From: Justusliebigvirus VEcB
Sequence record: OZ035773.1
Direction: 5' to 3' (one strand)
DNA: 64,000 bases
Shown: one piece after another, positions 5,813 through 56,457 of the stretch
Layout of the letters: each line of letters begins with the position of its first letter
How positions within the stretch are numbered: the stretch's first letter is position 1
Program-made: the position numbers and the translations under genes
The notes under the pieces: generated by a model
Seen by the model: only the letters and a program-made list of their open reading frames with translations
The model's database searches: none
Told to the model about the DNA's origin: nothing

Positions 5813-5827
5813 ATAACATTTCATACC

Positions 5828-19978: not shown

Positions 19979-20791
19979 TTATTTAGTCAAATGATCTTCT
20001 ATCATTTTTATGAAAGCAGGATTGCTAAAAGCATCTGCGGCCTTTTCTCGATAAACAAAAACTCCTCTATCTTCGTAAAGAAGAGTTTCTTCGTAATTAA
20101 TTCCTGGGTTAACAACAATCATTTTTGTACCCATACTAAGTGCAGGGAATAATTCCCAATTAAAATTGATAACTTGGTTTGAACATCCTACTACAACAAC
20201 CAAATCTTGCATGGTCAAAGTATCAAACAAGTGATCCATATCTGCATACAAAGGTGCAGCCTCACCAAAAAATACAACATTAGGCTTCACCCAGTTATAA
20301 TCATCTATGTTTATACTATTGTAACCAATGTCTACCAGTGTTTTGTAATCTCCAGGATGCATACGGTAAACTACTTCAGGAAGATATCCGTGCACGTGGA
20401 TAACAGAATCCCTGTCTACACCTGCTCGCTCTAGTAGATCATCAACGTTTGTTGTCAAGTTTACTACTTGGTTAGGATATTCCTTAAACCACTTTGCTAT
20501 TTGAATATGTGCAGCATTAGGTTGTACATCTTTAAGCTCAACACGTCTTTTGTTATAAAATTCGTGTGTTTTGGCATACAAATCCATACCGTTTTCGTCT
20601 ACACCACCAACCACTGGAAGATCTGGTGATGTTCTCACACGATAACCTGCTTGGAAAGCTCCAATATCGCAGATCTCTTCTAAATCCCATTCTTCCCATA
20701 GGGCACGACCACTATCTGTGTCTGTTCGGAATGTTCGAATCCCACTGTCTGCACTTAAACCAGCTCCACTAACAAAAATTACTCTTCGCAT
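19979..20791 (-). CDS. Sir2 (sirtuin) family protein
   Basis: GAGLSADSGIRTFR Rossmann motif, TTNVD, HVHG, FFGE, VVVGCS; no zinc-ribbon cysteines. Confidence 0.75.
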   Translation of the reverse strand: MRRVIFVSGAGLSADSGIRTFRTDTDSGRALWEEWDLEEICDIGAFQAGYRVRTSPDLPVVGGVDENGMDLYAKTHEFYNKRRVELKDVQPNAAHIQIAKWFKEYPNQVVNLTTNVDDLLERAGVDRDSVIHVHGYLPEVVYRMHPGDYKTLVDIGYNSINIDDYNWVKPNVVFFGEAAPLYADMDHLFDTLTMQDLVVVVGCSNQVINFNWELFPALSMGTKMIVVNPGINYEETLLYEDRGVFVYREKAADAFSNPAFIKMIEDHLTK

Positions 20792-21997: not shown

Positions 21998-22135
21998 TTA
22001 CCCCCAATGTATATGGGAAATTAACCAAAAGATAAATTCCCAAAAACACCAACCAAGAAAAGTTAATGGAATTATAAAAGCTATCAGAGCAGTCTTCCAG
22101 CCTTTCCACAATGTTTCCACTATTCCTCCATACAT
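21998..22135 (-). CDS. small membrane protein (45 aa)
   Basis: manual translation; fills gap between methyltransferase and 202-aa gene; not in track. Confidence 0.3.
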   Translation of the reverse strand: MYGGIVETLWKGWKTALIAFIIPLTFLGWCFWEFIFWLISHIHWG

Positions 22136-23109
22136 TTAAGAATATGTGCAATGACAGGTATAGTCCAACCGTTACCTAACATCTTATATGCTTGTGTGTT
22201 ACTACTCACTTTAAAGTAATCATCTGGCACACCTTGCAAACGGCAACACTCTTTAACGGTTAACTTTCTATAATGTACGCCTTCACTCAATTTTTCAAAA
22301 GCATCTAAATATCTTCCAGGTGGAATGTAAGCTAATAGTACGTCTTTCGGCACAGTCGTGAGGCAACGAGTTTTTTCACTATCCTGAACTTCCAAACAAT
22401 GTACCAAACGATCAGTTTTAGATGTACTACGTTTGCCATTCTCATTAATTCTACGCCCATATATTGCTGCTGGATAAAAAACCAGTTGTCTGCGACTCTT
22501 TTCAAAATACTGTTCTATATTACCACCTTTGGCATAATTTGCATCTATGCAATAAGCCTTATCTCTGTCTACAATACTATCATCTTCAATGATATCTTGC
22601 AACACTTCATTGGTAATATCCCAAGGTTTTATTTCCCAGTTGCACCAGTATAAACGTTGTCTATTCTGTGCTGTGAAATCTGCGGAGTTAATGAATACGG
22701 GATCAACACCTAAGTAACTTGTGATCACGTTTTCCCACTCCACTTTCATCTTAACGTTTTCAAGCATGAACTTAACATTAGGGTTAAACTTTTTAATATG
22801 TTCAAGAATCTCAACATATTCGAAGAATAGCTTAGATCGCGGATCTTGAAAGTTCAAACCTTTACCGGAAGAAGAGAAGCCTTGACACGGACTACCACCT
22901 AACAAAAGATCAATTTCTCCCCACGGGATATCCCATTCTCTCCATTTTGTAACATCACCTAACTGAATAATATCTGGAAAATTTGCTTGGCTTTCAGCTA
23001 TGGCAAATTTGTCTAATTCTGAAGCATAATATGTATCTACTTCAATACCTGCACTTTTTAGCGCAAGCATTCCTCCTGACATACCATCAAAAAGACTTAA
23101 AATTTTCAT
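22120..23109 (-). CDS. DNA (cytosine-5)-methyltransferase
   Basis: FDGMSGG (motif I) and GGSPCQGFSSSG (PCQ catalytic motif). Confidence 0.85.
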   Translation of the reverse strand: MKILSLFDGMSGGMLALKSAGIEVDTYYASELDKFAIAESQANFPDIIQLGDVTKWREWDIPWGEIDLLLGGSPCQGFSSSGKGLNFQDPRSKLFFEYVEILEHIKKFNPNVKFMLENVKMKVEWENVITSYLGVDPVFINSADFTAQNRQRLYWCNWEIKPWDITNEVLQDIIEDDSIVDRDKAYCIDANYAKGGNIEQYFEKSRRQLVFYPAAIYGRRINENGKRSTSKTDRLVHCLEVQDSEKTRCLTTVPKDVLLAYIPPGRYLDAFEKLSEGVHYRKLTVKECCRLQGVPDDYFKVSSNTQAYKMLGNGWTIPVIAHILKCMEE

Positions 23110-28085: not shown

Positions 28086-28324
28086 TCGTTGTTACGAGCA
28101 CTTTCAAGAACCTTGACAACTTCTGCATACTCTACAGCTAAACCAGCGCACACTTCAGCTTGTTTTGCAATTGCTTGTTTAAAGAACATAGCGATTGCAA
28201 CACTCTGTGTTGTGTGAATGTTATCTGCTTTAGTTGATACATGAAGATCAAAATCTTCTTCATCAAAGGTGAGTTCCATAGTAACAATAAATTTCTCGGT
28301 CATAAAAATGCTCCTCTTAAACAA
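28073..28324 (-). CDS. hypothetical protein (83 aa)
   Basis: six-frame ORF. Confidence 0.4.
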   Translation of the reverse strand: MFKRSIFMTEKFIVTMELTFDEEDFDLHVSTKADNIHTTQSVAIAMFFKQAIAKQAEVCAGLAVEYAEVVKVLESARNNDWEE

Positions 28325-28826
28325 AATAGAAAGGTTGAGTTAAACCCAGCCTGTTTTTTGGGTCGTAGACGTACCAAGCATATGCTGTCTTATCAGTACC
28401 ACCTGCAACAAAAGATGGTCGTTCAGAAAGAACAATCAAATTTGTTGGTGGATTCTGTTTATGGAACTCCCTTCGTTTAATAGACTCTAGGAACCCAAGA
28501 CGCAACAAGTATATGCAAACGTCTGCTTCTTTTAAGCTCTTTTGCAAGAACTCAAGTGCAAGTTTGAATGGGGGATTTGTGATTATAATATCCGGCTTAG
28601 TATGCCATTCGTGGTTAAAATAATCTTTCCCTTCTTCTAACTCACAATATTCTGATCCTTCTGGAAAATGTTGATAAATTGCAGCAGCAGCGCCTTTACA
28701 CGGTTCTGCAAAAATAAAACCTTCTTCTTTAAGGTTATTAAAATCTATTACACTAAATAATGCATTTATACATTTTTGTGGAGTAGGATAGTAATCAGTT
28801 GGTGGACGATCATACTTATTTGCCAC
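28317..28826 (-). CDS. DNA N6-adenine methyltransferase (small)
   Basis: TNPPF catalytic motif with upstream DYYPTP. Confidence 0.65.
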   Translation of the reverse strand: MANKYDRPPTDYYPTPQKCINALFSVIDFNNLKEEGFIFAEPCKGAAAAIYQHFPEGSEYCELEEGKDYFNHEWHTKPDIIITNPPFKLALEFLQKSLKEADVCIYLLRLGFLESIKRREFHKQNPPTNLIVLSERPSFVAGGTDKTAYAWYVYDPKNRLGLTQPFYFV

Positions 28827-29284: not shown

Positions 29285-29938
29285 TTAATTATCAGAGGAT
29301 ACTTTATCAAGTTTTTCAGAGACTGTCAATACTTTTTCTTGTGATTCTTTCATTTCTGCTAAAATACTTTCAGCTTCATCACTATCAGGATCACCAGTCA
29401 ACAGCATACTAATTAGTTGCTCCTTGCTGAAGTTCAGAATATCTTCCGCTGTTAGCTCCAGTTGTTCTTCAATCTCTTCGACAAAAGTTTCACCGCCTGA
29501 AAAAGCATCTCGTAGTTTTGCAACTTCCATCGCTTCTTCTGGGGTTGCCCCAGCATCTAAAGCTGCTAAAGCAAAATCTGCCCCACTACCAACAGCATAG
29601 TAATCTTCAGTTAAAGGATATGCTCGCGTTGGATTATTACCCTCGTGCATATAAATTTTACCGTCTGGGTGAACAACCAATGCCACAAACTCTTCATCTT
29701 CTTTATCAGGATCTGACTGGATCACCAAACCTGGGATTGTCTCTTGTGCTGCCTGGCACTGTAAGTTTTGTTCGAACCAAGAAAAGAAAGTCAGGATAGA
29801 AGACAGACGTCCTGCACCACCAACAAGGTAATCCCCAATTTTACGCACTTTCTTAAAATTTAAAGTGTCTACTCGATTACCTACTGTTACTTTACCGTCA
29901 GATAGAATTTTGTTATGTGTTGCAATAATTGTTGTCAT
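29285..29938 (-). CDS. HslV-like Ntn-hydrolase peptidase with acidic C-terminal extension
   Basis: N-terminal MTTII (Thr nucleophile after Met), GGAGRLSSILTFF, YAVGSGADFALAALDAG align with HslV. Confidence 0.7.
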   Translation of the reverse strand: MTTIIATHNKILSDGKVTVGNRVDTLNFKKVRKIGDYLVGGAGRLSSILTFFSWFEQNLQCQAAQETIPGLVIQSDPDKEDEEFVALVVHPDGKIYMHEGNNPTRAYPLTEDYYAVGSGADFALAALDAGATPEEAMEVAKLRDAFSGGETFVEEIEEQLELTAEDILNFSKEQLISMLLTGDPDSDEAESILAEMKESQEKVLTVSEKLDKVSSDN

Positions 29939-30465: not shown

Positions 30466-31218
30466 TTAATATACTTCCGTGATGAACTGAGACAAACGGG
30501 AACGTTGGTTATCAGCAGTTGTCATTTCAACATAACCAATAAAATCTACAATAGCTTCCCTTTCTCCTTCTTCGTTAATAGGAACAACACGATCTAACAA
30601 ATCACCTAACCCGTTAGCTCTTCGTTTAATTGCATATGTTTGATTAACATCGCCCATAATGACAATACGTGTATTAAGACCTGCTCGCTCAAGGAGAAGT
30701 TTTACTGTGTTTGGTGACATAAGTTGAACTTCATCAATAAGAATAATGCTGTTATCCCACGTAGCACCTAGTGCATAGTTCGGAATATTAAGTTCAATTT
30801 TGCCACTTGCAATATCGTTTTCCAATTTATTTGCAGTCATAAACTGTTGGAAAATTCTTTTAGTTGACTCGTAGTGTGCTGCTAGTTTATCAGTCTTATC
30901 TCCAGATAAGAAACCGATTTGGTCATCACCTACTTCTGTCGGGTTTTTAAGGAAAATCAACTTTCTGAAGTCACCAGCTTTAAGCATTTGCAATGCTTTC
31001 CATAGTGCTGTTGTCGTTTTTCCTGTTCCTGCTGGGGCATTAACAATGGTTAAATCATTCCAAACCATGCTTCTTACAATAGCTTCTTGATTCCCAACAG
31101 GGGTAAATTCATCAAGACGGTAATCATCATTTCCTACTGCTTTAGCCGCATAACGACTGGCACGTTTGTCATCATTGGCTGCTGATTGACGACGAGCCTT
31201 TGCGGTTTTATTTCCCAT
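30466..31218 (-). CDS. phoH: PhoH-like ATPase
   Basis: Walker A NAPAGTGKTT, Walker B ILIDEVQ, IMGDVNQ. Confidence 0.85.
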   Translation of the reverse strand: MGNKTAKARRQSAANDDKRASRYAAKAVGNDDYRLDEFTPVGNQEAIVRSMVWNDLTIVNAPAGTGKTTTALWKALQMLKAGDFRKLIFLKNPTEVGDDQIGFLSGDKTDKLAAHYESTKRIFQQFMTANKLENDIASGKIELNIPNYALGATWDNSIILIDEVQLMSPNTVKLLLERAGLNTRIVIMGDVNQTYAIKRRANGLGDLLDRVVPINEEGEREAIVDFIGYVEMTTADNQRSRLSQFITEVY

Positions 31219-31256: not shown

Positions 31257-31757
31257 TTAGTTATAAGCGTCTAATGTTCCAGTTTTAAGCACCTGAATTA
31301 CACGCTCTGCGCGATTAGGCGTTTGGCGATACCATTTACTTTTACGTAAATTTATAGAGGCTTGAGTATAATATGAATTACTCACTAAAGTCAAGCTATT
31401 TTTGAAAGATTCTGCACCTTTCAATCCCATTTGAAATACCATATTAATAATAGCCATTTTACGATTAGGACTTACTTTATCGTAAATAGGAGATAATATG
31501 GTGCTTGAATGGATTTGTTGTATCGCTTTCTTTACGTCACTCTCAAAGATTCTTCTAGCTTCCGCTTCAGTAATAACTCCATTGGTTTTTCTACCTACTA
31601 AGTTATCAAGAATGCGTATAGCTTCTGCTTTATCTTTGAGTTTTGTCAGAAGGTGTCCAATACCAACTGTCCAATACCCTTCGGTATCAGGATATACAGT
31701 TAGCTTTAGTCCTTCATCAAAACGTAACATATCAAACACATCAACTACTTTAGCCAT
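31257..31757 (-). CDS. T4-type lysozyme (endolysin, glycoside hydrolase)
   Basis: FDMLRFDEGLKLTVYPDTEGYWTVGIGHL matches T4 lysozyme N-terminus. Confidence 0.85.
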   Translation of the reverse strand: MAKVVDVFDMLRFDEGLKLTVYPDTEGYWTVGIGHLLTKLKDKAEAIRILDNLVGRKTNGVITEAEARRIFESDVKKAIQQIHSSTILSPIYDKVSPNRKMAIINMVFQMGLKGAESFKNSLTLVSNSYYTQASINLRKSKWYRQTPNRAERVIQVLKTGTLDAYN

Positions 31758-31917: not shown

Positions 31918-32184
31918 TTACTCCGCAATCTGAGCCATGAATTCACGTAGTTCAGAAAAACCTCCTACGTGGGTTAGCTGTTCACCATCTTCCACAAAAA
32001 TCTGAGGAAATGTGCGTGGTAGAACACCTGTTTTCTCTAAAACCAGATTCTGAATCTGATCTAAAGAATAGTCTTCATCTAAGGTAAGGTATTTAAAATC
32101 CTGTTCACGCTGTTCTAGTAGAATCTTAGCGTTAGTGCAGAAAGGACAATTTGGTTTACCGTAGATAATAAAATTCATTTTCAC
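31918..32184 (-). CDS. glutaredoxin (NrdC-like redoxin)
   Basis: CPFC active-site motif; 88 aa. Confidence 0.75.
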   Translation of the reverse strand: MKMNFIIYGKPNCPFCTNAKILLEQREQDFKYLTLDEDYSLDQIQNLVLEKTGVLPRTFPQIFVEDGEQLTHVGGFSELREFMAQIAE

Positions 32185-33011
32185 TCCTTGTTTAAAAGTA
32201 TAGTTAAAGTTCTTACAATACCGCTATCAACACTTCGCGGATTTAAAGTAGGATCTGTTTTTAAATAAGATGTTGCTGGTCTGACTGCTTTGGAATTATA
32301 GGTTGAAGCAGACACAGGATTAACTGTAACAGATAAATCTATAACAAGAAATATCTTACGTGCAAAATCATACCAAGAAATATAATCTGCACCTGCATAG
32401 TGTACAATTTTACTATTTACACCATCTTTTACAAGTTTAAAAATTGTTTCTGCAAGATCAGGTGCATAAGTAGGACATGACAAATGATCACATACTACAT
32501 TAAATTCTTTTTGACCACCGTTGTAGCGTTCCAACATAGTTTTCAAAAAGTTATGTCCAAATTCACTATAAACAGAAGCTGTTCTGATAATAAGTGCTGT
32601 AGGACAAACTGTTTGTACTAAAGTTTCACCTAATTGTTTACTGTAACCGTAGGTGTTCAAGGGGTTTGTTTTACTATCTTCTGTGCCAGCAACATGCCCA
32701 TCAAAAACATAGTCTGTTGAAATATGTACAAACTGTATCAGTAAATCATTACATGCTTTGGCAATGTTTGTTGCACCGTATGCATTAACATTTATACAGG
32801 TGTTAACATCTTCTTCAGCTTTATCTACTGCCGTGTAAGCCGCACAATTCACAACAACATCAGGCACATGCTGTACAAGACTATTCATAACATCTTTAAA
32901 GTTGGTAATGTCTACATCACTTGCTTCAATCAAAATAACATCTTCGGGCGCAACTTTTGCCAAAGACTGTCCTAATTGACCTTTTGAACCAAAGATTAAA
33001 AATTTTGTCAA
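32181..33011 (-). CDS. rmlD: dTDP-4-dehydrorhamnose reductase
   Basis: N-terminal GxxGQLG Rossmann motif; YTAVD; operon position. Confidence 0.8.
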   Translation of the reverse strand: MTKFLIFGSKGQLGQSLAKVAPEDVILIEASDVDITNFKDVMNSLVQHVPDVVVNCAAYTAVDKAEEDVNTCINVNAYGATNIAKACNDLLIQFVHISTDYVFDGHVAGTEDSKTNPLNTYGYSKQLGETLVQTVCPTALIIRTASVYSEFGHNFLKTMLERYNGGQKEFNVVCDHLSCPTYAPDLAETIFKLVKDGVNSKIVHYAGADYISWYDFARKIFLVIDLSVTVNPVSASTYNSKAVRPATSYLKTDPTLNPRSVDSGIVRTLTILLNKE

Positions 33012-33562
33012 AATATGATCTCCTTTAGTGTTTTGGCTTGCTGATCTTTTTGTGACAAGATAGGTTTAAAATTAATATCATTAAAGATTAAATCAAAACC
33101 CCAATCAATATTGATATCTGGATCATTCCACGCAAGACTACACTCTGAAGTCGGATCGTAATATTCTGTACATTTATATTCAAAATCAGCAATGTCACTA
33201 ATCACAACAAAGCCATGAGCGAAACCAGGAGGAATCCAAAATTGTGTTTTATTCTTTTCAGATAAGAGAACACCTACCCATTCTCCAAATGTTGGACTAC
33301 CAACTCTAATATCCACAGCAACATCATAAACTTCACCACGAACACAACGTACTAACTTCCCTTGTGGGTTTTTCTTTTGAAAATGAAGCCCACGTAGAAC
33401 TCCTCGGATAGAACGTGAATGGTTATCTTGGACAAAGTTTTGTTTACCTATGTATTGATCATATAAAGCCTGATTAAAACTTTCTAAGAAAAAACCACGT
33501 TCATCTCCGTAAACGTCTGGTTGAATGATCAACAAATCTTCGATTTTTGTTGCTTGAATCAT
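33008..33562 (-). CDS. rmlC: dTDP-4-dehydrorhamnose 3,5-epimerase
   Basis: cupin-type RGLHFQ region; size and operon position. Confidence 0.8.
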   Translation of the reverse strand: MIQATKIEDLLIIQPDVYGDERGFFLESFNQALYDQYIGKQNFVQDNHSRSIRGVLRGLHFQKKNPQGKLVRCVRGEVYDVAVDIRVGSPTFGEWVGVLLSEKNKTQFWIPPGFAHGFVVISDIADFEYKCTEYYDPTSECSLAWNDPDINIDWGFDLIFNDINFKPILSQKDQQAKTLKEIIF

Positions 33563-33574
33563 TTAATCTCCCCT

Positions 33575-34444
33575 TTATTTTAATTTAAGTAAATACTTGC
33601 CGTAGTCTGTTTTACTTAAAACCTCTCCAGAACTTTTTACAGAATCTAAAGTAATCCATTCATTTTTAAAAGCAATCTCTTCTAGGCATGCAACCTTCAT
33701 ACCTTGTTGCTTTTCTATTGCATGAACAAATTGAGATGCTTCCATAAGACTTTCATGTGTTCCTGTATCCAGCCAAGTGAAACCTCTTCCTAGCTTACAG
33801 ACACGTAAAGCCTTTTCTTTCCAGTACATCTCATTTATATCTGTGATCTCTAACTCTCCTCTAGCAGAAGGCTTAACGCTTTTAGCTTTCTGTATAACAG
33901 AATTATCGTAAAAGTACAAGCCTGTAATTGCATAGTTGCTTTTTGGTGCTTTTGGTTTTTCTTCAATACTTACCACTGTACCTTCAGAATCAAACTCAAC
34001 AACACCAAATCTTTCAGGATCATTTACGTGATACCCAAAAATATTAGCTCCACCATTCTTTTCAATATGTTCTTTAGCAGAATCTAAAATGCTACCAAAA
34101 CTCTGACCAAAGAATAAATTATCACCTAGCACAAGTGCTACAGAATCTTCACCAATAAAGTTCTCACCAATAATAAACGCTTCTGCTAAACCTTTTGGGC
34201 TATCCTGTATTGCATACTGTAGGGAAATACCAAAAGAAGAACCGTCACCTAGAAGATTTACAAAATTAATTTGATCTTCTGGTGTTGTAATTATTAGTAT
34301 TTCCCTAATTCCAGAAAGCATTAGGACAGAGAGTGGATAATAAATCATAGGTTTATCGTAAATTGGTAATAGTTGTTTACTAACCCCTTTAGTAACTGGG
34401 TAAAGTCTTGTTCCACTACCACCTGCTAAGATAATACCTTTCAT
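33575..34444 (-). CDS. rmlA: glucose-1-phosphate thymidylyltransferase
   Basis: [16 protein letters not shown] signature. Confidence 0.85.
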
Positions 34445-34452
34445 ACTCCTCC

Positions 34453-35442
34453 TTAAACTTTATTTTCCCACCACTCTTTGTTATCTACATACCAATCAAT
34501 GGTTGAATAAAGTTTTTCTTCAAATGTGCCTTTAGCTTTCCACCCTAATTCCTTTTCAATCTTATAAGGATTCACTTCATATCTTAGATCATGCCCAGGC
34601 CTATCTGTAACCATCTCAATGAGGCTACAAGCATCTGTTTCAGATGGATATACCGCATCCATATAATCACAAATCATATAGATTACATCAATATTAGTTC
34701 TAGGGTTTCTGCTCCCAATATTATATGTTTCTCCAGATTTGCCTTTAGTTACTACTAGGTGTAATGCTTCTGCGTGATCGTCAACGTATAGCCAGTCTCT
34801 TACTTGAAGACCATTGCCATAAACAGGGATTGGTTTATTCATTAAGATATTTGTTATCGTCTTAGGTATTAGTTTTTCTGGATGATGATACGCTCCAAAA
34901 TTATTTGAACAATTTGTTATAACTGTCGGAATACCATAAGTACGATGCCACGCTCTTACCAAATGATCGCTTGCAGCTTTAGATGCGGCATATGGACTAC
35001 TTGGTTTATAAGGATTCTGTTCTGTAAACGGATAATCCCCTTCTTCCATATCACCATACACTTCATCTGTTGAAATATGATGAAACATTTTAAGATTTGA
35101 TTTATCTCCCATTAAACGAACAGCTTCTAGAAGATTAAATGTTCCAACGATATTTGAATTTATAAAAACACTCGGTGATGCTATTGAATTATCTACGTGA
35201 CTTTCTGCTGCAAGATGCATTATATAATCTGGGTTAACATCTGCCACAATCTTAGCAGTTAACTGAGCATTTGTCAAGTCAACACGACAAAACTTTACAT
35301 TAGGTGTTTCTGATAAATTTCTAGGGTCTGAAGCGTAACCCCATTTATCTATAACGTAAATATCATTCTTAGTATTTTTAGCCAGGAAACGAACTACTGC
35401 ACTTCCAATAAAACCTAAACCACCTGTTACTAAGTATTTCAT
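34453..35442 (-). CDS. rmlB: dTDP-glucose 4,6-dehydratase
   Basis: TGGLGFIGS Rossmann motif; YAASK catalytic motif. Confidence 0.85.
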
Positions 35443-35636
35443 TTAGTCTCCTTCCAATTATTCCCTTCAGTAAAAATAATACCTTCATAAAACAACCATC
35501 TGGAACCTTTTTCAACAGGAACAGGAATCTCTTCTTCAGTAAAGTTATAAACCTCTCTAGCATCTTCTAAAAGTGATGCAAATGTTTTTGGACTTACTGT
35601 TACGCGAGGAGCATTGATCAGTTGATCTAGCATCAT
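35439..35636 (-). CDS. hypothetical protein (66 aa)
   Basis: track ORF 35439..35729 trimmed to internal ATG with AGGAGG RBS. Confidence 0.4.
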   Translation of the reverse strand: MMLDQLINAPRVTVSPKTFASLLEDAREVYNFTEEEIPVPVEKGSRWLFYEGIIFTEGNNWKETK

Positions 35637-35649
35637 TCTACTATCCTCC

Positions 35650-35976
35650 TTACCAAACGTGTTGAGAAATAATAGTTTCCGTTTCAATGTTATATTTTTC
35701 AAGAAGTTGTGCATAGGCTTCTTTTGCATTCTTATTTAGTTGCTCAAGATCTACAGCTACACTTCCTTCGCCACCTTCTAAATAAATCCCATATATGCAA
35801 TAAGATGCATCAGCGTCATAGAAAGGTGAGATACGGCTTAAATCAAGACCTTCTTGTAAGAACCAATTAAAATCTCCATCAAATTCTTCTTCAATTCTAG
35901 GATCTTCTCCTACAGCCTCTTCCCATTTATTAAAAGGTGCGCCCTGTAACATACGCCATTCAATATTAGTTCCCAT
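35650..35976 (-). CDS. hypothetical acidic protein (108 aa)
   Basis: six-frame ORF. Confidence 0.45.
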   Translation of the reverse strand: MGTNIEWRMLQGAPFNKWEEAVGEDPRIEEEFDGDFNWFLQEGLDLSRISPFYDADASYCIYGIYLEGGEGSVAVDLEQLNKNAKEAYAQLLEKYNIETETIISQHVW

Positions 35977-36112
35977 TATCTTCCTCCTCTTCTTTTTCTT
36001 CCGTGTGAACGAAGCCTAAACCGTTACAATTCCAACACGGAATAAATTGTTCCATACTAACAATAAAATTCCCAGTACCACCGCAGATAGGACAAATACT
36101 TACATCGTCCAT
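35969..36112 (-). CDS. small zinc-ribbon protein (47 aa)
   Basis: CPICGG...CWNC by manual translation; not in track. Confidence 0.35.
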
Positions 36113-36114
36113 TA

Positions 36115-36321
36115 TTAAAGCTCCTCAATCTTTTCTAACATCTGTTTTAACTCATTCTCTGTTAATAGAATTTCTGTGATACCATCATAAGTTTCTACCA
36201 TCAGAGTAAAACATTTCTCTCCATCTGAACATACAAAAGCACCACCTTCCTCTTCTGTTAAGTCAGAATTAATATCTACATCAACAAAATCAATCATCTT
36301 TTTCTCCTTTGATAATTTCAA
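36115..36321 (-). CDS. hypothetical protein (68 aa)
   Basis: six-frame ORF. Confidence 0.4.
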   Translation of the reverse strand: MKLSKEKKMIDFVDVDINSDLTEEEGGAFVCSDGEKCFTLMVETYDGITEILLTENELKQMLEKIEEL

Positions 36322-36508
36322 ACTTGGCTACACCATTAACTATAATATGACCGCAAGACAGAACTCCTAGCCAATGATCACCATTCTTTTTTAAACGTTT
36401 ACCGTAAACATCACAGAAACCATTCTGTAATTCGGAAGCCTCGTAAGAGGCTCCCTTTTCGAAAACGTCTTTGAAGTCAGAAATTAATCCAACACAAAGT
36501 AGTTTCAT
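36290..36508 (-). CDS. hypothetical protein (72 aa)
   Basis: six-frame ORF. Confidence 0.4.
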   Translation of the reverse strand: MKLLCVGLISDFKDVFEKGASYEASELQNGFCDVYGKRLKKNGDHWLGVLSCGHIIVNGVAKFEIIKGEKDD

Positions 36509-37593
36509 TAGAAGTCTAACTCCTCGTCATCACTTACATCTTTATTTGCTGAATTCAGTTTGTAAGCTGTAATTTGGATCTCCTGTGCTGCTGCTTGAAT
36601 TTGATCTGGATTTAACCAAACATCCATCCAAGGCAGTGGACTTTTCTTCGGTGCACGGAATTTGTGTTTCATTTTCAGTCTGCGATAGATAGGCGCAGCA
36701 TTGAAGTAAACCCAAAGTTTGAACAACTCTGCGTTACCACCAACGATAATCCTTCCTTCACTAAACAGATAGTCACACCAATCTTCCTCTTGTCCAACTA
36801 CCGTGTCAAGAATTTCTGTCAGAACGTCGATATTATCTTCGTATACTTTTCTCCAGACAGGATCTTTCAGCAGTGCATCAATAATAGCATAATCCATTTT
36901 AACGTGCAATAGTTCATCCAACATAATTTTTTGAATGAGTTTAGCTGCACCTACAAACAGTTGCTGCTCTGCTAAGGCAAATGTTGCAGCAAAAGATGAT
37001 ATGAATTGAATGCCTTCCAGACCGATAAGTGCAATCATTCCTTTCAGAATCAGTAGACGAAGGTTATCATCCTTCTCAATCAGACCTAGAGCATATTTAT
37101 GTCCTGCCTCTGCCAGATCACTCATTATCTCTTCAACTATACCCATCCTCTGGAAGATTCTTTCGTTCTCCATAATCTGATCGATAACTTCATTTGGATT
37201 AGGGATACACTGACGAATAATTTCAGAATATGTCAAAGCGTGTAAAACTTCCATTTCTGATTGCTTCATCATCATTGCACATGCTTCGTTGTTGCTTAAA
37301 AATGGTGCAAACAAAGTGATGATTGATTTAGCAAGTGAATCATTTTCCCATTGGAAAGATAGGTTTTTGATCATAACATCATAGTTGCTTTTAGAACAAG
37401 CTACGAAATCTTTTCGTGTCTGATCTAAGTTTACTTCGTTTTCATCCCAATCTTGCTGTTTTTGTAGTTTGTACAGACGATGCATTTCTGGGTATGTTAC
37501 ATTAATAGAATCAAAAATACCTAACTGTTCTCCCAAAAACACAGGGTAGAAACCTTCTTTGTAAGTGTCGTTGTATAAGTTAATTGCTGCCAT
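36508..37593 (-). CDS. nrdB: ribonucleotide reductase small (beta) subunit
   Basis: ferritin-like helices with conserved E/H; position next to nrdA. Confidence 0.85.
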   Translation of the reverse strand: MAAINLYNDTYKEGFYPVFLGEQLGIFDSINVTYPEMHRLYKLQKQQDWDENEVNLDQTRKDFVACSKSNYDVMIKNLSFQWENDSLAKSIITLFAPFLSNNEACAMMMKQSEMEVLHALTYSEIIRQCIPNPNEVIDQIMENERIFQRMGIVEEIMSDLAEAGHKYALGLIEKDDNLRLLILKGMIALIGLEGIQFISSFAATFALAEQQLFVGAAKLIQKIMLDELLHVKMDYAIIDALLKDPVWRKVYEDNIDVLTEILDTVVGQEEDWCDYLFSEGRIIVGGNAELFKLWVYFNAAPIYRRLKMKHKFRAPKKSPLPWMDVWLNPDQIQAAAQEIQITAYKLNSANKDVSDDEELDF

Positions 37594-48868: not shown

Positions 48869-50013
48869 GTACCTGGAATCATCTTACGTAAACGGACACC
48901 TGTTGGTTTCGTAGGTATTCCACCATCGGAAAACTCTTCATACTCAATCTCAACAAATTTACCAATTAACATTTCGGCATTTTCTGCTTTACGATAGTTA
49001 ATGGTTTCATCTGAATCCTTACGCATCAGGAATTCGACTACTTTACCATTTTCCATCTCGCCTGTCAATACCCCGTCACCATTTTTATCACGCTTTGCGC
49101 TTACCACTTTAACTTCAAGCGTCTGACGTGGTTTACGTTTAATAACATCATAAGAACGTTTATCAAACTCGTAAACACCTTGTGCGTTACGATACACCAC
49201 ACCTTCCGCTTTCTCACGTAGAGCTTTTGCATAGAAAGCATCAAACTGTTCTTGGTTTTCAATGTACTCTGTATGTACTACACAAATAAGTTCATCTAAA
49301 CCTTTATCTTCAACAACGTCTTTTAGAGCAGCCAAAACTTCAACCCTCTTCTCAAATGGTACAGATGGCACAGGAACATCATATACATAGTATTTAAGAA
49401 GCGGAGTGTTAGCATTATGCTTTTTCCACGCACTATTAATTTGTTGAAGGCTAAGGACACCCAAACCAGCAAAAACTTCACCGTCAAGAGGATGACCAAC
49501 TACTTCTTTAATGAAGGTTGGAATTTCTTTCCAGTGAGGTGGAAGTTTATATACTTCCCCAGCTTTAGATAAACATTCACCTTGCATGTTAATCATTGAA
49601 CGTAGACCATTCAATTTATATTGTGCATAACCTGGGAACAAAACACGATCAGCATAATCTTTATAATCCTGACATTTCATGGGTGTGGAAGGAACATGGT
49701 TTTCAGCTTCCTCTTTTGTTTTATAATACCCATTCTTAAGTTGTTTTGTCCATTTGGCAAGAGCTTCTATTTCAGCTTGTTCTTCTGCTGTTGTTTCATT
49801 TGAGCGACCAATATTTTTAGGTTCTGCTGTATAAGATTTGCTAGTAATCTTTCCACCTAATTGACCATGAGCAACAGTTACAACACTACCTTCGGTATAG
49901 ACTGACCACTGTTTAATTTTACCTGTAGAAGTTTTACCATACAATGTAGGATTAGTTTGTTTCATCTTTAACCTCCAGTTGAGAAAGAACCCATTTAGCC
50001 ATTTCAATTTCAC
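48850..50013 (-). CDS. ATP-dependent DNA ligase (start may be internal)
   Basis: YKLNGLR adenylation motif K-x-N-G-x-R; nucleotidyltransferase plus OB-domain size. Confidence 0.75.
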   Translation of the reverse strand: MKLKWLNGFFLNWRLKMKQTNPTLYGKTSTGKIKQWSVYTEGSVVTVAHGQLGGKITSKSYTAEPKNIGRSNETTAEEQAEIEALAKWTKQLKNGYYKTKEEAENHVPSTPMKCQDYKDYADRVLFPGYAQYKLNGLRSMINMQGECLSKAGEVYKLPPHWKEIPTFIKEVVGHPLDGEVFAGLGVLSLQQINSAWKKHNANTPLLKYYVYDVPVPSVPFEKRVEVLAALKDVVEDKGLDELICVVHTEYIENQEQFDAFYAKALREKAEGVVYRNAQGVYEFDKRSYDVIKRKPRQTLEVKVVSAKRDKNGDGVLTGEMENGKVVEFLMRKDSDETINYRKAENAEMLIGKFVEIEYEEFSDGGIPTKPTGVRLRKMIPGTWEPAE

Positions 50014-50376: not shown

Positions 50377-50697
50377 TTAATCCTTAAGACGTTCATTTAA
50401 ATCTGCAATAACATCACCTAAATCTTCACATTCCAGTGTTAATTCTGAAACTTGTCCACTCAAATAACAAACTTCTTCATTTAGATCTGAAATAATGTTT
50501 TCTAATGAATCTACTTGGTCATCATATGAACGTTTTGTTTCTTCAAGGTCTTCCATAAGACTATCAATCAAATGCAGCAAAGATAAGATATAGCCGTCTC
50601 CTGTCTCGTTCCTCCACTCACTTCCGTAGCGATAAATAATAATTTCACCATTATCGACTACTGTAAAATACTTACCTTCACCAGAATAAATTTCCAT
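50377..50697 (-). CDS. hypothetical protein (106 aa)
   Basis: six-frame ORF. Confidence 0.45.
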   Translation of the reverse strand: MEIYSGEGKYFTVVDNGEIIIYRYGSEWRNETGDGYILSLLHLIDSLMEDLEETKRSYDDQVDSLENIISDLNEEVCYLSGQVSELTLECEDLGDVIADLNERLKD

Positions 50698-50706
50698 ACA
50701 CTCTCC

Positions 50707-51111
50707 TTATTGTAGCTTAAGTGAACTGCGAAGACGTTTTTCTTGCTGATCACGAATATGTTGTGGAACCTCATGAATTGAATCGTTACCGTGCCTATTC
50801 TCCACAACTAAAGAAATAACTTGATAACCAAACTCTTCAGCAAGAGTTAAATAAGGTTTAAGTTCTTTTTCTGTAGTAGAGGTATTAGAAACAATAATCT
50901 TTTCAACACCATACTGCATATATTTTTGTACTTTGACACGACACCATTGGTGTGCTTTATGGATATTCTCTTGTTTCCACTCATACACACCATCTTCAGT
51001 GTAGTGGTATTGATCTGCCTCACAAATAGGCCAATGATTTTCAGAGATAATTTCTGCTACTGTAGATTTACCTGCACCTGAAACACCACGTAAAATGATA
51101 AGTTGTTTCAT
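50707..51111 (-). CDS. P-loop kinase (polynucleotide 5'-kinase-like)
   Basis: Walker A GVSGAGKST; size and position next to ligase and phosphoesterase. Confidence 0.55.
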   Translation of the reverse strand: MKQLIILRGVSGAGKSTVAEIISENHWPICEADQYHYTEDGVYEWKQENIHKAHQWCRVKVQKYMQYGVEKIIVSNTSTTEKELKPYLTLAEEFGYQVISLVVENRHGNDSIHEVPQHIRDQQEKRLRSSLKLQ

Positions 51112-52044
51112 TTAGCCTCCAAAGAAGTTTTCTATTTCTTTACGTCGCTCTTGTGGATCGAGAGTAGCCCATTGAGCCTTCGTAAATTTATTTCGAAGCC
51201 ATTCTAGCAAAGTATAATATTCTTCGTCAACAATTTGTTTAGCATTGTTTGGGTTGTCCCAAATCATATCCCACTTCTTATTGCCACCACGCATAAGGAA
51301 TTTCTTAGCAAGATAGTATGGTGACTTAATCTTTAAGAGTAAGTTAAACGGATAGTTTGTTTCACGAACAACAAAGCCTTCGTGTCTACAATGTTTAGAC
51401 ATTTCAACAACATCTGAAAATTTAATCATCGGATAAACTTCAGGACGTTTAAATTTTGTAATAGATGCAATCCCATCAAGAACACCTTCAGGTAACATGA
51501 AACTTGTCCCATCAAGATTTTGAATTCTTGCTCCAATTAAGTATGCGCCTGGTTCTTCTTCGACAATATGTGGATCAGAAGGATCACAGATTTCAAAAAG
51601 AAAAGTTGCTTTTGCACTTTCTGTCCACTTAATGAAATACTCTATATCGTCACACTCGGAAACAATACGGTTCTTTGCCATAATTGCGAAATCTGATTCT
51701 AGGCTCCCTGTTGTTGATACAACAAGTTTCCCTTTGTACACACCTACAGATGCCATAAAACCGTTTACTTTACGGGCAGCATCTACAATTTCGTCTGCTG
51801 GAAGATCTGTACCATTTTCAAAACGATTAAAGATTTTAGTAAAAGGCCAAATAACAACATTGTCTTCTGAGTCAACAACCAACCCACGACAATCTAAAAG
51901 TCGTTTGTCAACGTTCCACAAGTTATCCCAGAATACATTGTTTTTGTATTTAAGTACAGCAAGACCAGCATACTCTCCAGATTTAACTTCTTTTTTATGC
52001 ACTAAACCTTTTGCAATCAGGTCATCACAATTGAACTTAGCCAC
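51112..52044 (-). CDS. RNA ligase (T4 Rnl1-like)
   Basis: LLDCRGLVV resembles T4 Rnl1 ALECRGIMF; KVNG nucleotidyltransferase motif I; EGFVVRE. Confidence 0.55.
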   Translation of the reverse strand: MAKFNCDDLIAKGLVHKKEVKSGEYAGLAVLKYKNNVFWDNLWNVDKRLLDCRGLVVDSEDNVVIWPFTKIFNRFENGTDLPADEIVDAARKVNGFMASVGVYKGKLVVSTTGSLESDFAIMAKNRIVSECDDIEYFIKWTESAKATFLFEICDPSDPHIVEEEPGAYLIGARIQNLDGTSFMLPEGVLDGIASITKFKRPEVYPMIKFSDVVEMSKHCRHEGFVVRETNYPFNLLLKIKSPYYLAKKFLMRGGNKKWDMIWDNPNNAKQIVDEEYYTLLEWLRNKFTKAQWATLDPQERRKEIENFFGG

Positions 52045-52045
52045 C

Positions 52046-52597
52046 TTAATCTCCTTTGATTATCTTATGATGATCTACAACAATAATATCACGCTTATCC
52101 ATAATAGAGATGATTTCGTCAAAATGCAAGATTTTCCCGTGTGCATCCCAACCAACATCCAACATTTTCCCATACAAATGATCAGGGAATGATCCGTGAG
52201 AGTGTCCGTGTAGCATGATTGATCCATGCCCTTGTTTATTCCAGGCAGCCATAGGGTAATGACTTAAGACGAAGAACAGCTTCTTATATTTCACTTCGTC
52301 ATAATACACAACTTCTCCATACTCTGCAAGCATTTTTCGGTGTTTGCTATAATCGTGATTACCAACAATAAACGTAATATCACCTTGCAAACGACAAGCA
52401 ATTTTACGTGTATCTTCTTCGGTTCCGAAACAGAAGTCCCCAAGATGGTACATCTTTACTCCTGGTGTTGTGGCACATTTATTCCATGCTTCGATCAGTG
52501 CTTCTGTCATATGCTCCATATCTTCCCACGGGCGATATTCAGGAGCAAACTCTCGGATACGTTTGTGCATAAAATGCAAATCACTTGTAATAAACAT
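52046..52597 (-). CDS. calcineurin-like metallophosphoesterase
   Basis: DLHF, GDFCFG, GNHD motifs. Confidence 0.7.
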   Translation of the reverse strand: MFITSDLHFMHKRIREFAPEYRPWEDMEHMTEALIEAWNKCATTPGVKMYHLGDFCFGTEEDTRKIACRLQGDITFIVGNHDYSKHRKMLAEYGEVVYYDEVKYKKLFFVLSHYPMAAWNKQGHGSIMLHGHSHGSFPDHLYGKMLDVGWDAHGKILHFDEIISIMDKRDIIVVDHHKIIKGD

Positions 52598-52959
52598 TAG
52601 TATAATCCCTCGCTGAATAGTTCACTGTTGTGACCATTTCTTTCGTAGTTAATTTGTTTGGCGTTATCTGCAATGATATAAGCATCTTTGCGACTCCACC
52701 AGTTATAATACTGATCAATAAACCCTTGATTATCAGGTAAGCAAAACAGTTTATCAATCAATCCTGCATCTTTTAAAACATTAAGTTGTGCAGATAGTAC
52801 AGGATTTGCATGCCTAACACAAGGAATAATTAACTCTTCGCCATTATTGAGAATATACTTGTTCGCAGCGCAGACTATAACACGTTGAGCATAGTGATCC
52901 TCACCAATCCAAGTAAGAGGTTGGTAACAAATATCATGTTGATTAGTAGCGCACATCAA
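52597..52959 (-). CDS. hypothetical protein (120 aa)
   Basis: six-frame ORF. Confidence 0.45.
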   Translation of the reverse strand: MMCATNQHDICYQPLTWIGEDHYAQRVIVCAANKYILNNGEELIIPCVRHANPVLSAQLNVLKDAGLIDKLFCLPDNQGFIDQYYNWWSRKDAYIIADNAKQINYERNGHNSELFSEGLY

Positions 52960-53113
52960 TTTTCTCCATACTCTTTTAATCTATCAGCGAAAAACTGTAA
53001 TCAGGAAGTAAAAGATCATTACTCGTATCGCTACAGTTTTCTTCCTCTTTATAGATAAAATGCCCTTCATCCTCTTCTTGCTCTGACCAAACTGAGTAAT
53101 GCATAATACCTAC

Positions 53114-53488
53114 TTAATAGTTAACACGTTTAATTTCAACACCATAGGATGCAATAAAATTTTCCTTAGCTAACATATATTTACTAGCAGCAGAAGGATT
53201 TGATGTATGAACATAGATAGTTTTAAGAGCATCCCATTCACCTGCGTACAACATACATTCTACATCTAAGAACGCATGATAGCCTTCTTGATCTTCTCCA
53301 AGATCATTATCGAAGTGTATTTCTGAGATATTATTGAAATTATCTTCATCTGAAACAAAAGATGACCAATCCCCAAAAGATTTTAACCAAATGGCATCCT
53401 CATAACCATAATCTTTAGGATCTCTTAAATCGTCTAACCAAAGAATTTTAGCCACTATCAACCCCCTTCCTGTTTCTCTTCTTTCCAA
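53114..53488 (-). CDS. hypothetical protein (124 aa)
   Basis: six-frame ORF. Confidence 0.45.
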   Translation of the reverse strand: MERRETGRGLIVAKILWLDDLRDPKDYGYEDAIWLKSFGDWSSFVSDEDNFNNISEIHFDNDLGEDQEGYHAFLDVECMLYAGEWDALKTIYVHTSNPSAASKYMLAKENFIASYGVEIKRVNY

Positions 53489-53649
53489 GTTTTACCTTTA
53501 TCTACCAATTGCTTAGAAACAGCAAATCTTTCTCCATTGACATAAAACAGATAAAGAATAAAGGATTTTCCTATAGTTACAGTATCTACCACTTCTACAC
53601 GCTTTACACCTTGCATGTATTTGGCTTTACCTGAATAAATAAGGAACAT
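53458..53649 (-). CDS. hypothetical protein (63 aa)
   Basis: six-frame ORF. Confidence 0.35.
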   Translation of the reverse strand: MFLIYSGKAKYMQGVKRVEVVDTVTIGKSFILYLFYVNGERFAVSKQLVDKGKTWKEEKQEGG

Positions 53650-53927
53650 TATTTATTCCTTTTGTTGTTGATCACATCTAAAGCTGTATAAGGTTTGTTT
53701 GTACCGCTGTATTCAAGAATAATTGGTGCATGTTCATAGACAAACTCAAAAGTACCATACACAGAATCTGCAACTGAAATAAGCATTTCAGTGCCTTCAT
53801 CGTTCTTAATTAATGAAAACCTTGCCCCTGGTTTATTGAGCACTTCATATTTCTTACCTACTGTCAGCAAACCTGAATACCATTCATTTTGCACAACAGA
53901 CAAACACTTCAGGTAGGTTTTTCTCAT
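53649..53927 (-). CDS. hypothetical protein (92 aa)
   Basis: six-frame ORF. Confidence 0.45.
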   Translation of the reverse strand: MRKTYLKCLSVVQNEWYSGLLTVGKKYEVLNKPGARFSLIKNDEGTEMLISVADSVYGTFEFVYEHAPIILEYSGTNKPYTALDVINNKRNK

Positions 53928-54265
53928 TTCTTTTTGCTCCTTCTTTTAGGCTTCTCGTATAAACCTAACACAGCCGATTCTTTTGCGCAAATAGGAACTG
54001 ACTTCATCCCTCGTTTTTTAGCTTCTGGTAGATTCAAAACCCACCAACCAAACCAATACAATTCATCTTCTGTGAAAGGATCTGCCATAGGATCTGCATC
54101 ACGTTCTTCAAATTTAGCAAGAGCTTCTTCTATCTTTTCTATTGGAGTATCAAAGACAAAAGCCTCTGTGTCAAATTTTTGTTTCTTAGGAGCGGCCTTT
54201 GCCGCCCCATCTTTAGATGCGTGCTTTGTTACGGATCGCTTCTTCGGTGTTTTCGCCATCAACAA
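53924..54265 (-). CDS. hypothetical protein with basic termini (113 aa)
   Basis: K-rich N and C termini. Confidence 0.45.
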   Translation of the reverse strand: MLMAKTPKKRSVTKHASKDGAAKAAPKKQKFDTEAFVFDTPIEKIEEALAKFEERDADPMADPFTEDELYWFGWWVLNLPEAKKRGMKSVPICAKESAVLGLYEKPKRRSKKK

Positions 54266-54452
54266 CCTCCATACGGTGTAAGAAATCTTGCTGGAATCGC
54301 CAATACTGTTGACCAGTCCTTACATCTTCGTAGATCACAACAGGATCAAACACTTTAGATACACCCGCTGGTTTAGGAAAACCAACTACACGATATAAAC
54401 CACCTTTGCTAATACAAGAATATGTTACATCAGTTAAAATTTCTTTTTTCAT
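54213..54452 (-). CDS. hypothetical protein (79 aa)
   Basis: six-frame ORF. Confidence 0.4.
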   Translation of the reverse strand: MKKEILTDVTYSCISKGGLYRVVGFPKPAGVSKVFDPVVIYEDVRTGQQYWRFQQDFLHRMEVVDGENTEEAIRNKARI

Positions 54453-54646
54453 TTTTTAATAAACTCCAAAACAGGTACGTGATCAGCAGTCAAAGTTACA
54501 CAATTGTAACTTACCTTTTCAACTTCAGAGAATGCTTCAACCCAAAGCAAGAAATTCTCTTTAGCTTCTTCATAATTCAATGTTGACTTAACAACATGAA
54601 ACTCACCAAGAATTACTCTATAGATTGTTTGCATAGTTTGATTCAT
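54449..54646 (-). CDS. hypothetical protein (65 aa)
   Basis: six-frame ORF. Confidence 0.4.
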   Translation of the reverse strand: MNQTMQTIYRVILGEFHVVKSTLNYEEAKENFLLWVEAFSEVEKVSYNCVTLTADHVPVLEFIKK

Positions 54647-54712
54647 TTATTTTTCCTTTGTTTAGAATGTGTTAAACAATCGCAAATGCTTGTGACGCAC
54701 TTTGTGATCCCA

Positions 54713-55081: not shown

Positions 55082-55492
55082 TATTCCCTCCTGTATGGCT
55101 CTGTAACGAGCTAATAGCCTCTAAGATATGCAATCACCTTACCTCACAGTAAAACTCGTTACAATCGTTTTTAGGAGGTTTAGGTTGTACTTAAAAATAA
55201 TCCAAAAAGGTGTTGACAAACGCAAAAAAGTATGCTACCCTAACCCCCGAAAAACGCCGAGCGCAGCGAGGGGGGGTGTTATCTAATCTTGTGATACATG
55301 ATCTAACAGACAACTGAGTAGTCTACATATAGCACTATGTTATGTCTATAATACTAACATACATGCTCTATACTAACAATAGATTCTTTATTAATTTTAT
55401 TATTAATTAAATAATAAATATCTATTGACTTTAGATCTATCTGTATGTAGAGTAGAGAACATAAAGTCCTAACTCAACTAAGGAGATAAACA

Positions 55493-56386: not shown

Positions 56387-56396
56387 ATAATAAGTG

Positions 56397-56431: not shown

Positions 56432-56457
56432 ACACTAACAAACAAGGAGACATAACT

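Follow-up and report, generated by a model that had tools for sequence, protein, structure and literature searches.

What use does a strictly lytic coliphage with a very broad host range make of an activated sugar that it produces by itself? This question is raised by a stretch of 64,000 nucleotides from Justusliebigvirus VEcB (sequence record OZ035773.1), referred to in its entirety as the window, in which four consecutive genes, rmlB, rmlA, rmlC, and rmlD, are predicted to encode the route from glucose-1-phosphate to deoxythymidine diphosphate (dTDP)-L-rhamnose. The analysis described here adds the pairing of this cassette with a cluster of four glycosyltransferase (GT) genes, found in close relatives of the phage outside the region that matches the window, as well as the gene neighborhood of a similar cluster in a distant relative, a case against bulk modification of the phage DNA, and a rationale based on independence from the host. 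The reading that we prefer, and hold tentatively, is that the cassette supplies donor sugar to the phage GT cluster, which would act on an acceptor other than DNA, most likely on a virion protein.

The rml cassette and its products

Families were assigned by bit score with the curated NCBIfam equivalog cut-offs, and the Pfam assignments agree with them. All four products exceed the respective cut-off: RmlB matches TIGR01181 with 443 bits (cut-off 365), RmlA matches TIGR01207 with 473 bits (cut-off 361), RmlC matches TIGR01221 with 260 bits (cut-off 156), and RmlD matches TIGR01214 with 254 bits (cut-off 224). Each protein can also be aligned over nearly its full length with orthologs of known structure. 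Residues 1–327 of RmlB align with Salmonella enterica RmlB (1G1A, E=6e-117), with the motifs GGxGFIGS, STDEVYG, and YxxxK (YAASK) kept, so that the features of an extended short-chain dehydrogenase/reductase (GxxGxxG, the Thr-Asp-Glu triad, and YxxxK) are all present. Residues 2–288 of RmlA align with S. enterica RmlA (1IIM, E=5e-125); the GGSGTRL motif is kept, the features of the short type are found, and Glu256 of the allosteric site is conserved. The alignment of RmlC with its S. enterica counterpart (1DZR, E=6e-64) includes the catalytic contexts RGLHFQ, GKLVRC, and FEYK, and the catalytic His, Lys, and Tyr of cupin epimerases are in place. In turn, the best solved relatives of RmlD are the enzymes from Bacillus anthracis (3SC6, E=5e-44) and then Clostridium acetobutylicum (1VL0), with S. 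enterica RmlD (1KBZ) at 3e-35; the GxxGxxG (GSKGQLG), STDYVF, and YxxxK (YGYSK) motifs align to 3SC6, and the features of an NAD(P)H-dependent 4-ketoreductase are present.

Judged by sequence, the cassette qualifies fully as an RmlABCD pathway, with every defining feature that was tested found in it, and the four enzymes would almost certainly make dTDP-L-rhamnose. The location that a first-pass annotation of the window had given to the four genes (32181–35442) proved exact, and its claim of a full route from glucose-1-phosphate to dTDP-L-rhamnose is borne out by the completeness of the four families and the retention of the catalytic motifs. Neither frameshifts nor internal stops, which by that annotation would have counted against the cassette, occur in the four open reading frames (ORFs), all of which are intact.

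A Shine–Dalgarno sequence precedes each rml gene (GGAGA for rmlB, AAGGAGG for rmlA). The spacers measure 8 nt between rmlB and rmlA and 12 nt between rmlA and rmlC, with overlaps of 4 nt both between rmlC and rmlD and between rmlD and the glutaredoxin gene grx. A simple promoter and terminator scan of the region did no better than with shuffled sequence and revealed no terminator-like site on the coding strand within the cassette; the rml genes are likely to be co-transcribed with the flanking nrd and grx genes. The placement of the cassette between nrdB and the glutaredoxin and lysozyme genes, also reported by the first-pass annotation, holds with the refinement that four or five small ORFs (about 48–108 aa) lie between nrdB and rmlB, at 35439–36508 on the minus strand. 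In phage phAPEC8, four small ORFs form a similar block at this place, so that the block travels with the cassette.

The allosteric residue of RmlA bears on how the pathway may be regulated. Mutation of Glu256 in S. enterica RmlA abolishes feedback control, and dysregulated RmlA perturbs dTTP pools, cell division, and O-antigen synthesis in Escherichia coli (PMC12773781). Since the phage RmlA retains Glu256, flux through it is probably product-limited, which would fit a role in biosynthetic supply better than one in draining dTTP. The presence of Phe146 in this enzyme was considered as an equivalent of the engineered "hyperactive" Y146F change, an idea that was rejected, as Phe occurs naturally at this position in 60 of 62 homologs from bacteria.

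RmlD is the most unusual of the four proteins in its relationships. It reaches 140 bits against the enterobacterial RfbD model PRK09987, for which the cut-off is 308, and E. coli rfbD shows no match to the cassette at the DNA level. Among solved structures, it is nearer to RmlD of Bacillus, Clostridium, and Streptococcus (including GacA, 4WPG) than to that of S. enterica. The cassette may be of mosaic origin, or RmlD may be of the monomeric type.

Relatives, earlier descriptions, and origin of the cassette

More than 50 GenBank records from phi92-like phages of E. coli are 98–99% identical to the window region, the best match being vB-Eco-KMB37 (KMB37). The region corresponds to positions 82,118–146,666 of the BASEL phage EmilieFrey (Bas61) and continues from the end of that record through its start to 736. 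It thus represents another isolate of the genus Justusliebigvirus, subfamily Stephanstirmvirinae. The gene content of the cassette is already known, both from databases, since most of these records annotate the four rml genes, and from publications on phi92-like and phAPEC8-like phages. Olsen 2020 described the pathway and proposed that it serves the modification of DNA with rhamnose, Maffei 2021 (PMC8594841) called it "a putative dTDP glycosylation machinery", and a 2024 iScience paper repeated the idea of a "rhamnose modification". A literature search found no paper that establishes a function or phenotype of phage rml genes. The other members of Stephanstirmvirinae (phi92, EmilieFrey, KMB37, and others, as well as phAPEC8 and other members of Phapecoctavirus) carry the same cassette with no substantive difference.

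Five records labeled "Campylobacter phage" with Campylobacter jejuni as the host (MG065645, MG065650, MG065656, and others) are 95–99% identical to these phages across the rml and GT genes. They are probably mis-assigned or contaminant E. coli phages, and the "Serratia" and "Pseudomonas" labels on other nearly identical genomes are similarly doubtful.

In phAPEC8 the cassette is found in the same position, in the order thyX-nrdA-nrdB-small ORFs-rmlBACD-grx-lysozyme-phoH, with protein identities of 55–72%, and the RmlC homologs of Phapecoctavirus are 62–63% identical; the cassette is therefore older than the divergence of the two genera. When one genome per species was compared (185,579 species), the closest bacterial RmlC sequences were 56–64% identical and scattered over Marinomonas, Serratia, Symbiopectobacterium, Psychrobacter, Fibrobacter, and other taxa, and no Rml protein exceeds about 64–68% identity to any sampled bacterial homolog. 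The rfb and rff DNA of E. coli is about 65% identical, never covers 80% of the cassette, and has the order B-D-A-C rather than B-A-C-D; the latter is present in several of the closest bacterial loci, namely those of Tatumella, Ewingella, Marinomonas, and Moritella. The codon usage of the rml genes correlates with that of the other window genes, taken together, at r of 0.74–0.80 for relative synonymous codon usage (typical genes, 0.78 ± 0.08), and their GC content at third codon positions (GC3) is 0.20–0.23 compared with a window mean of 0.29 ± 0.06, which is about 1 to 1.6 standard deviations (SD) low and within range. The view that the cassette is not a recent insertion from the host, expressed earlier on the basis of codon usage, is thus supported by codon usage in the phage range, by the limited identity of RmlC to bacterial sequences, by the different gene order in E. 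coli, and by the synteny with phAPEC8.

The phage genes share with the bacterial rfbBDAC and rmlBACD loci the same four families, the same motifs, Glu256 of RmlA and, in the case of the closest loci, the gene order. They differ from them in being placed within the nucleotide-metabolism module of a strictly lytic phage rather than in a polysaccharide locus, with no adjacent GT, flippase, or polymerase.

More than 130 genomes, which represent at least two genera, have intact ORFs for all four proteins in the same position. Within the genus, the cassette differs from that of KMB37 by 30 synonymous and 2 non-synonymous changes (18 and 0 in rmlB alone), and from that of EmilieFrey by 36 synonymous and 7 non-synonymous changes, with a dN/dS ratio of at most 0.11. 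In the comparison with phAPEC8, dS is saturated, yet the ORFs are still intact. These patterns indicate that the rml genes are under strong purifying selection.

A glycosyltransferase cluster in related phages

No GT had been recognized in the window by the first-pass annotation, and none is found there: tblastn searches with the four GTs of the relatives yield only matches with E >= 0.14, and no GT is annotated in the matching parts of KMB37 and EmilieFrey. This does not extend to the whole genome, however, as the relatives have a cluster of four adjacent GT-like genes, bas61_0046–0049 of EmilieFrey (Table 1), about 70 kb from the rml cassette. The cluster thus offers clues to the acceptor of the sugar, which the first-pass annotation had left unknown for lack of a recognized GT.

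The products of all four genes match GT families of the PHROG database with E values of 1e-79 to 1e-149, their Pfam GT matches being weak. The first two, bas61_0046 and bas61_0047, are paralogs with 40% identity and GT4-like GT-B enzymes with matches of the Glyco_trans_1 type. The third, bas61_0048 (228 aa), is a minimal GT-A protein with an invariant FDDD motif, and the fourth, bas61_0049, matches a PHROG glycosyltransferase family. Membrane segments are absent from all four proteins, three of which are net acidic. An AlphaFold (AF2) model of the GT-A family (mean confidence score, pLDDT, 88) shows a GT-A fold, with solved structures matching it weakly (TM-score <= 0.48): STIV A197, the fucosyltransferase WrtF, TarP, RmlT, and collagen GTs. 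The model of the GT-B protein (pLDDT 94) resembles the GT4 enzymes GlgM, BshA, PglA, MshA, GtfC/Gtf3, SdgB, and TarM, with TM-scores of up to 0.65. Assignment of an acceptor from these fold searches was attempted and abandoned, as the matches were only generic GT-A and GT4 ones.

In a database of 50,697 phage records, the cassette and the cluster are distributed in parallel: RmlC is found in 54 records at an identity of at least 95% and in 77 more at 60–80%, and the corresponding numbers are 53 and 74 for bas61_0046, 55 and 71 for bas61_0048, and 54 and 77 for bas61_0049. The cluster is present in all Justusliebigvirus and Phapecoctavirus-like genomes that were examined. A more independent link between the cluster and deoxyhexose is provided by a distant metagenomic phage contig (SRR10036067_145492, positions 3825–7869), the GT-B protein of which is only 39% identical. 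There, a gene for a 6-deoxyhexose enzyme lies inside the GT cluster, in the order bas61_0049-like GT, RmlB-like NDP-hexose 4,6-dehydratase, bas61_0048-like GT-A, GT-B, primase/helicase, and PolA. This dehydratase shares 31% identity with RmlB of the window and, among the families, fits TIGR01181 best, with a score below the cut-off.

Two genes past the cluster in EmilieFrey, bas61_0054 (49079–49684, 201 aa) has a sub-threshold match to Cupin_3 (E=0.0024). Its product may act as an isomerase or epimerase on sugar nucleotides, or it may be a small dioxygenase, in which case it would be relevant to the question of DNA modification.

Host independence and the proposed role of the cassette

The gene repertoire of the host offers a reason for which a phage might carry the whole pathway. 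All complete E. coli genomes (5,426 of 5,426) match the cassette at least once, through rffG and rffH in the locus for the enterobacterial common antigen (ECA), and the typical genome matches in two places (median), of which the other is an rfb-type locus. Whereas these paralogs of RmlB and RmlA occur in all strains, rmlC and rmlD are present only in E. coli strains with a rhamnose-type O-antigen locus. The complete pathway is therefore not guaranteed in every host, and a phage that needs dTDP-rhamnose everywhere must bring at least rmlC and rmlD; carrying all four genes also uncouples the supply from host regulation.

On the preferred reading, the cassette would form a self-contained route from glucose-1-phosphate and dTTP to dTDP-L-rhamnose, expressed, presumably in the early or middle phase of infection, together with the genes for nucleotide metabolism next to it, and would guarantee the donor sugar in any host. 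The dTDP-L-rhamnose would then feed the four soluble GTs of the phage, which would assemble a glycan that contains rhamnose on an acceptor other than bulk DNA, with one or more virion proteins as the preferred guess. That the pathway feeds the GT cluster is, in our view, probable. The identification of the acceptor as a virion protein is put forward with considerably more reserve, and the complete proposal, according to which the four GTs of phi92-like and phAPEC8-like coliphages attach a rhamnose-containing oligosaccharide to the virion proteins of the phage itself, is slightly more doubtful still.

A diversion of ECA synthesis, in which the phage would draw dTDP-4-keto-6-deoxyglucose from that pathway, was also considered. 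ECA had been proposed as the receptor by Maffei 2021 (PMC8594841), whereas the later Eryne paper reports that Justusliebigvirus targets the NGR glycan on K-12 and not ECA. The idea was rejected in view of this later report and since such a diversion needs only RmlC and RmlD.

Candidate acceptors and alternative explanations

The hints that favor protein as the acceptor are individually weak. The best TM-scores of the GT-B model include those for GtfC and Gtf3, which extend O-glycans on serine-rich-repeat proteins, a GT homolog in Burkholderia adjoins an invasin-type adhesin, and the GTs are soluble and, in three of four cases, net acidic proteins of a strictly lytic phage. Outside the clade, the only phage homologs of the GT-A protein are about 66 GTs of cluster-F mycobacteriophages (E=9e-13 for the GT-A domain of Llij gp96). 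A cluster-F phage, Che8, reportedly glycosylates its capsid and tail tube with phage GTs. The phi92-like cluster resembles the virion glycosylation systems of Che8, Corndog, and Myrna in that two to four soluble phage GTs are grouped in non-structural regions; it differs in that the mycobacteriophages use host nucleotide sugars, whereas the phi92-like phage encodes the donor pathway. The phi92-like GTs are not members of the Che8-type system at the sequence level, but they may work in an analogous way. Direct homology with the Che8 enzymes was examined and rejected by pairwise BLASTP, leaving an indirect link through cluster F. Another parallel is Mimivirus, in which a UDP-L-rhamnose pathway feeds the glycosylation of fibrils: there too, a virus encodes a 6-deoxyhexose pathway together with GTs and is independent of the glycan repertoire of the host, although the nucleotide is UDP and not dTDP, the epimerase/reductase is bifunctional, and the host is a eukaryote. 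Among viral structures, a GT of Bandra megavirus ranks with the top matches of the GT-A model.

Several observations weigh against donor supply for virion glycosylation. The parallel distribution of the rml and GT genes, while suggestive, reflects co-inheritance in one clade and is thus not independent, and we infer the presence of the GT cluster in the phage of the window from relatives that are 98–99% identical across the window region. The GT genes adjoin replication genes, as those of DNA-modifying GTs typically do. The GT4 matches of the GT-B protein also include enzymes acting on lipid-linked or small-molecule acceptors (PglA, MshA, and BshA), the folds being generic with TM-scores of no more than 0.65. 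BLASTP detected no significant similarity of bas61_0048 to Che8 gp108 and gp110 or of bas61_0049 to Che8 gp109, and no report of glycosylated phi92-type virions was found in the literature, a search that did not cover phi92 proteomics.

The location of the rml genes among those for nucleotide metabolism, together with that of the GT genes next to primase/helicase and DNA polymerase genes, also suits the idea of Olsen 2020 that the sugar goes to DNA, in the form of rhamnose on a modified base, perhaps sparse or sequence-specific and conferring no general resistance to restriction. This explanation we consider improbable. In its favor, bas61_0048 matches the TET-associated GT family PF20691 with 23.3 bits over 60 residues, below the cut-off of 27.5, and the PHROG family of the T-even beta-glucosyl-HMC-alpha-glucosyltransferase with a sub-threshold E of 5e-5; its R...DDD...ED pattern resembles the published R...DDD...EDY/F motif, and the phage encodes a Dcm-like C5-cytosine methyltransferase. 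The likeness to hydroxymethylcytosine glucosylation in T-even phages and to TET-associated glycosylation thus comprises soluble GT-A and GT-B proteins near replication genes as well as a C5-cytosine methyltransferase. However, those systems use UDP-sugars of the host, whereas the phi92-like phage makes its own dTDP-sugar, and neither a dCMP or dUMP hydroxymethylase nor a TET/JBP dioxygenase was detected in it: the thymidylate synthase is ThyX (Thy1) rather than a hydroxymethylase of the ThyA type, and no TET/JBP, 2-oxoglutarate-dependent dioxygenase, or ThyA domain was found among the neighbors of the methyltransferase and the 20 largest unannotated EmilieFrey proteins (at least about 170 aa). 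The T4 alpha- and beta-glucosyltransferases (AGT and BGT) are not among the top 50 matches of the GT-B model, the net acidic character of three of the GTs also speaks against DNA as their acceptor, and a 2023 bioRxiv study that mined DNA-glycosylating GT-A enzymes with hidden Markov models lists no genome of Stephanstirmvirinae. Sensitivity to restriction, suggested by the first-pass annotation as a check, can be read from published phenotypes of relatives. The phi92-like BASEL phages, EmilieFrey included, are "exceptionally susceptible" to restriction-modification systems (Maffei 2021, PMC8594841). The Durham phages Pau (Paula) and PATM, both of which belong to Justusliebigvirus and are among the cassette matches found here, are restricted about 1e7-fold by BREX and are not among the phages sensitive to BrxU, a nuclease of the GmrSD type whose substrates are DNAs carrying many different modifications of cytosine (Picton 2021, PMC8565348). 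No nucleoside analysis of these phages was found in the literature, and two recent papers on DNA modification mention neither these phages nor rhamnose. Bulk DNA modification is thus unlikely, and modification of DNA bases, which the first-pass annotation had placed first among its candidates, becomes the least favored of them.

Remodeling of the host envelope, in which the phage GTs would place rhamnose on the lipopolysaccharide (LPS) core, O-antigen, ECA, or intermediates linked to undecaprenyl pyrophosphate (Und-PP), appears less improbable than DNA modification but still rather unlikely. It could serve to block superinfection, to free progeny from debris, or to weaken the wall by sequestering undecaprenyl phosphate. 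Surface glycans dominate the biology of these phages, which recognize and degrade them by means of many tail fibers (Maffei 2021, PMC8594841; the Eryne paper), the top matches of the GT-B model include PglA and TarM, which act on Und-PP-linked or wall-polymer acceptors, the GT-A model weakly matches WrtF, TarP, and RmlT, and a gene for a cell-wall hydrolase (Hydrolase_2) is located about 750 bp from the GT cluster. The solubility of the GTs is compatible with this explanation, as peripheral GTs acting on lipid carriers also have no membrane segments. On the other hand, the known phage modifiers of O-antigen (gtrABC type) belong to temperate phages and are membrane proteins, unlike the soluble phi92-like GTs, and the EmilieFrey annotation contains no flippase, polymerase, ligase, or initiating phosphoglycosyltransferase. 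Moreover, a lytic cycle is too short for newly made LPS or ECA to replace the existing surface. A purely metabolic role, such as buffering or draining of the dTTP or glucose-1-phosphate pool or a boost to the dTDP-sugars of the host, would agree with the company of thyX, tk, nrdAB, and grx, and with the effect of dysregulated RmlA on dTTP pools, yet it is quite improbable: draining needs RmlA alone, while all four enzymes are under purifying selection in two genera, the feedback by dTDP-rhamnose through Glu256 limits flux unless the product is consumed, and the four co-inherited GTs would be an obvious consumer. Least credible of all is a decaying or neutral passenger cassette (a moron). The lack of a published phenotype and the slightly low GC3 might be quoted for it, but it is effectively refuted by the intact ORFs in all those genomes, the low dN/dS ratio, and the retention of the catalytic residues.

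Other features of the window and of related genomes

The features discussed here are collected in Table 1, which also lists other genes of the window taken from the annotation of its relatives.

Table 1. Positions of the rml cassette, its flanks, the GT cluster, and other genes; numbering is that of the window unless another record is named
Feature	Position	Strand	Remarks
rmlB, dTDP-glucose 4,6-dehydratase	34453–35442	minus	329 aa; first gene of the cassette; ATG start
rmlA, glucose-1-phosphate thymidylyltransferase, short (RfbA) type	33575–34444	minus	289 aa
rmlC, dTDP-4-dehydrorhamnose 3,5-epimerase	33008–33562	minus	184 aa
rmlD, dTDP-4-dehydrorhamnose reductase	32181–33011	minus	276 aa; TTG start
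nrdB	36508–37593		flank of the cassette
Glutaredoxin gene (grx)	31918–32184		flank, downstream of rmlD
T4-type lysozyme	31257–31757		flank
bas61_0046–0049, four adjacent GT-like genes	EmilieFrey MZ501063, 44,552–47,728	same as the adjoining primase/helicase and DNA polymerase genes	
SIR2-family (sirtuin) protein	19979–20791	minus	annotation of relatives
Dcm-like C5-cytosine methyltransferase	22120–23109	minus	annotation of relatives; no TET-like neighbor
N6-adenine methyltransferase	28317–28826	minus	annotation of relatives
HslV/proteasome-like protein	29285–29938	minus	annotation of relatives
PhoH-like ATPase	30466–31218	minus	annotation of relatives

On the plus strand of the window, at about 55500–58200, lies a pair of genes (bas61_0254–0255 in EmilieFrey) annotated as encoding a phosphoribosylpyrophosphate synthetase and a nicotinamide phosphoribosyltransferase. 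As annotated, the pair resembles NARP1, a two-enzyme phage pathway of NAD+ reconstitution that counters NAD-depleting defenses. It is followed on the same strand, at 58938–62135, by an array of 16 tRNA genes (three for Met, two each for Leu and Ser, and one each for Lys, Tyr, Asn, Thr, Gly, Gln, Pro, Phe, and Ile), which is two more than in the annotation of EmilieFrey. Outside the region that matches the window, at about 50400–59100, EmilieFrey carries a Ter-like set consisting of vWA-TerF-like, TelA, and TerC genes and, after these, macrodomain, phosphoribosyltransferase, and HAD-like genes; apart from the last three, the genes are annotated as hypothetical. The set resembles bacterial clusters associated with tellurite resistance, the predicted product of which is a nucleoside-like metabolite.

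Implications for the biology of Stephanstirmvirinae

Members of Stephanstirmvirinae are among the most often isolated phages of E. coli and are in development for therapy, so that the destination of the sugar is of more than formal interest. If rhamnose is placed on the host envelope, it would represent a new strategy of takeover by a lytic phage, and if it is placed on DNA, the result would be a base modification of a new kind, giving no protection from restriction. If it is placed on virions, it may affect their immunogenicity, stability, and host range; such virion rhamnosylation would be the first system for glycosylating virions in phages of Gram-negative bacteria, and the first in which a phage is known to bring its own donor-sugar pathway for the purpose. 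Virion glycosylation would, in addition, matter for phage therapy through shielding from antibodies and stability in the gut. By naming the four-GT cluster as the probable partner of the rml genes, the analysis narrows the options and makes the function of the cassette directly testable.

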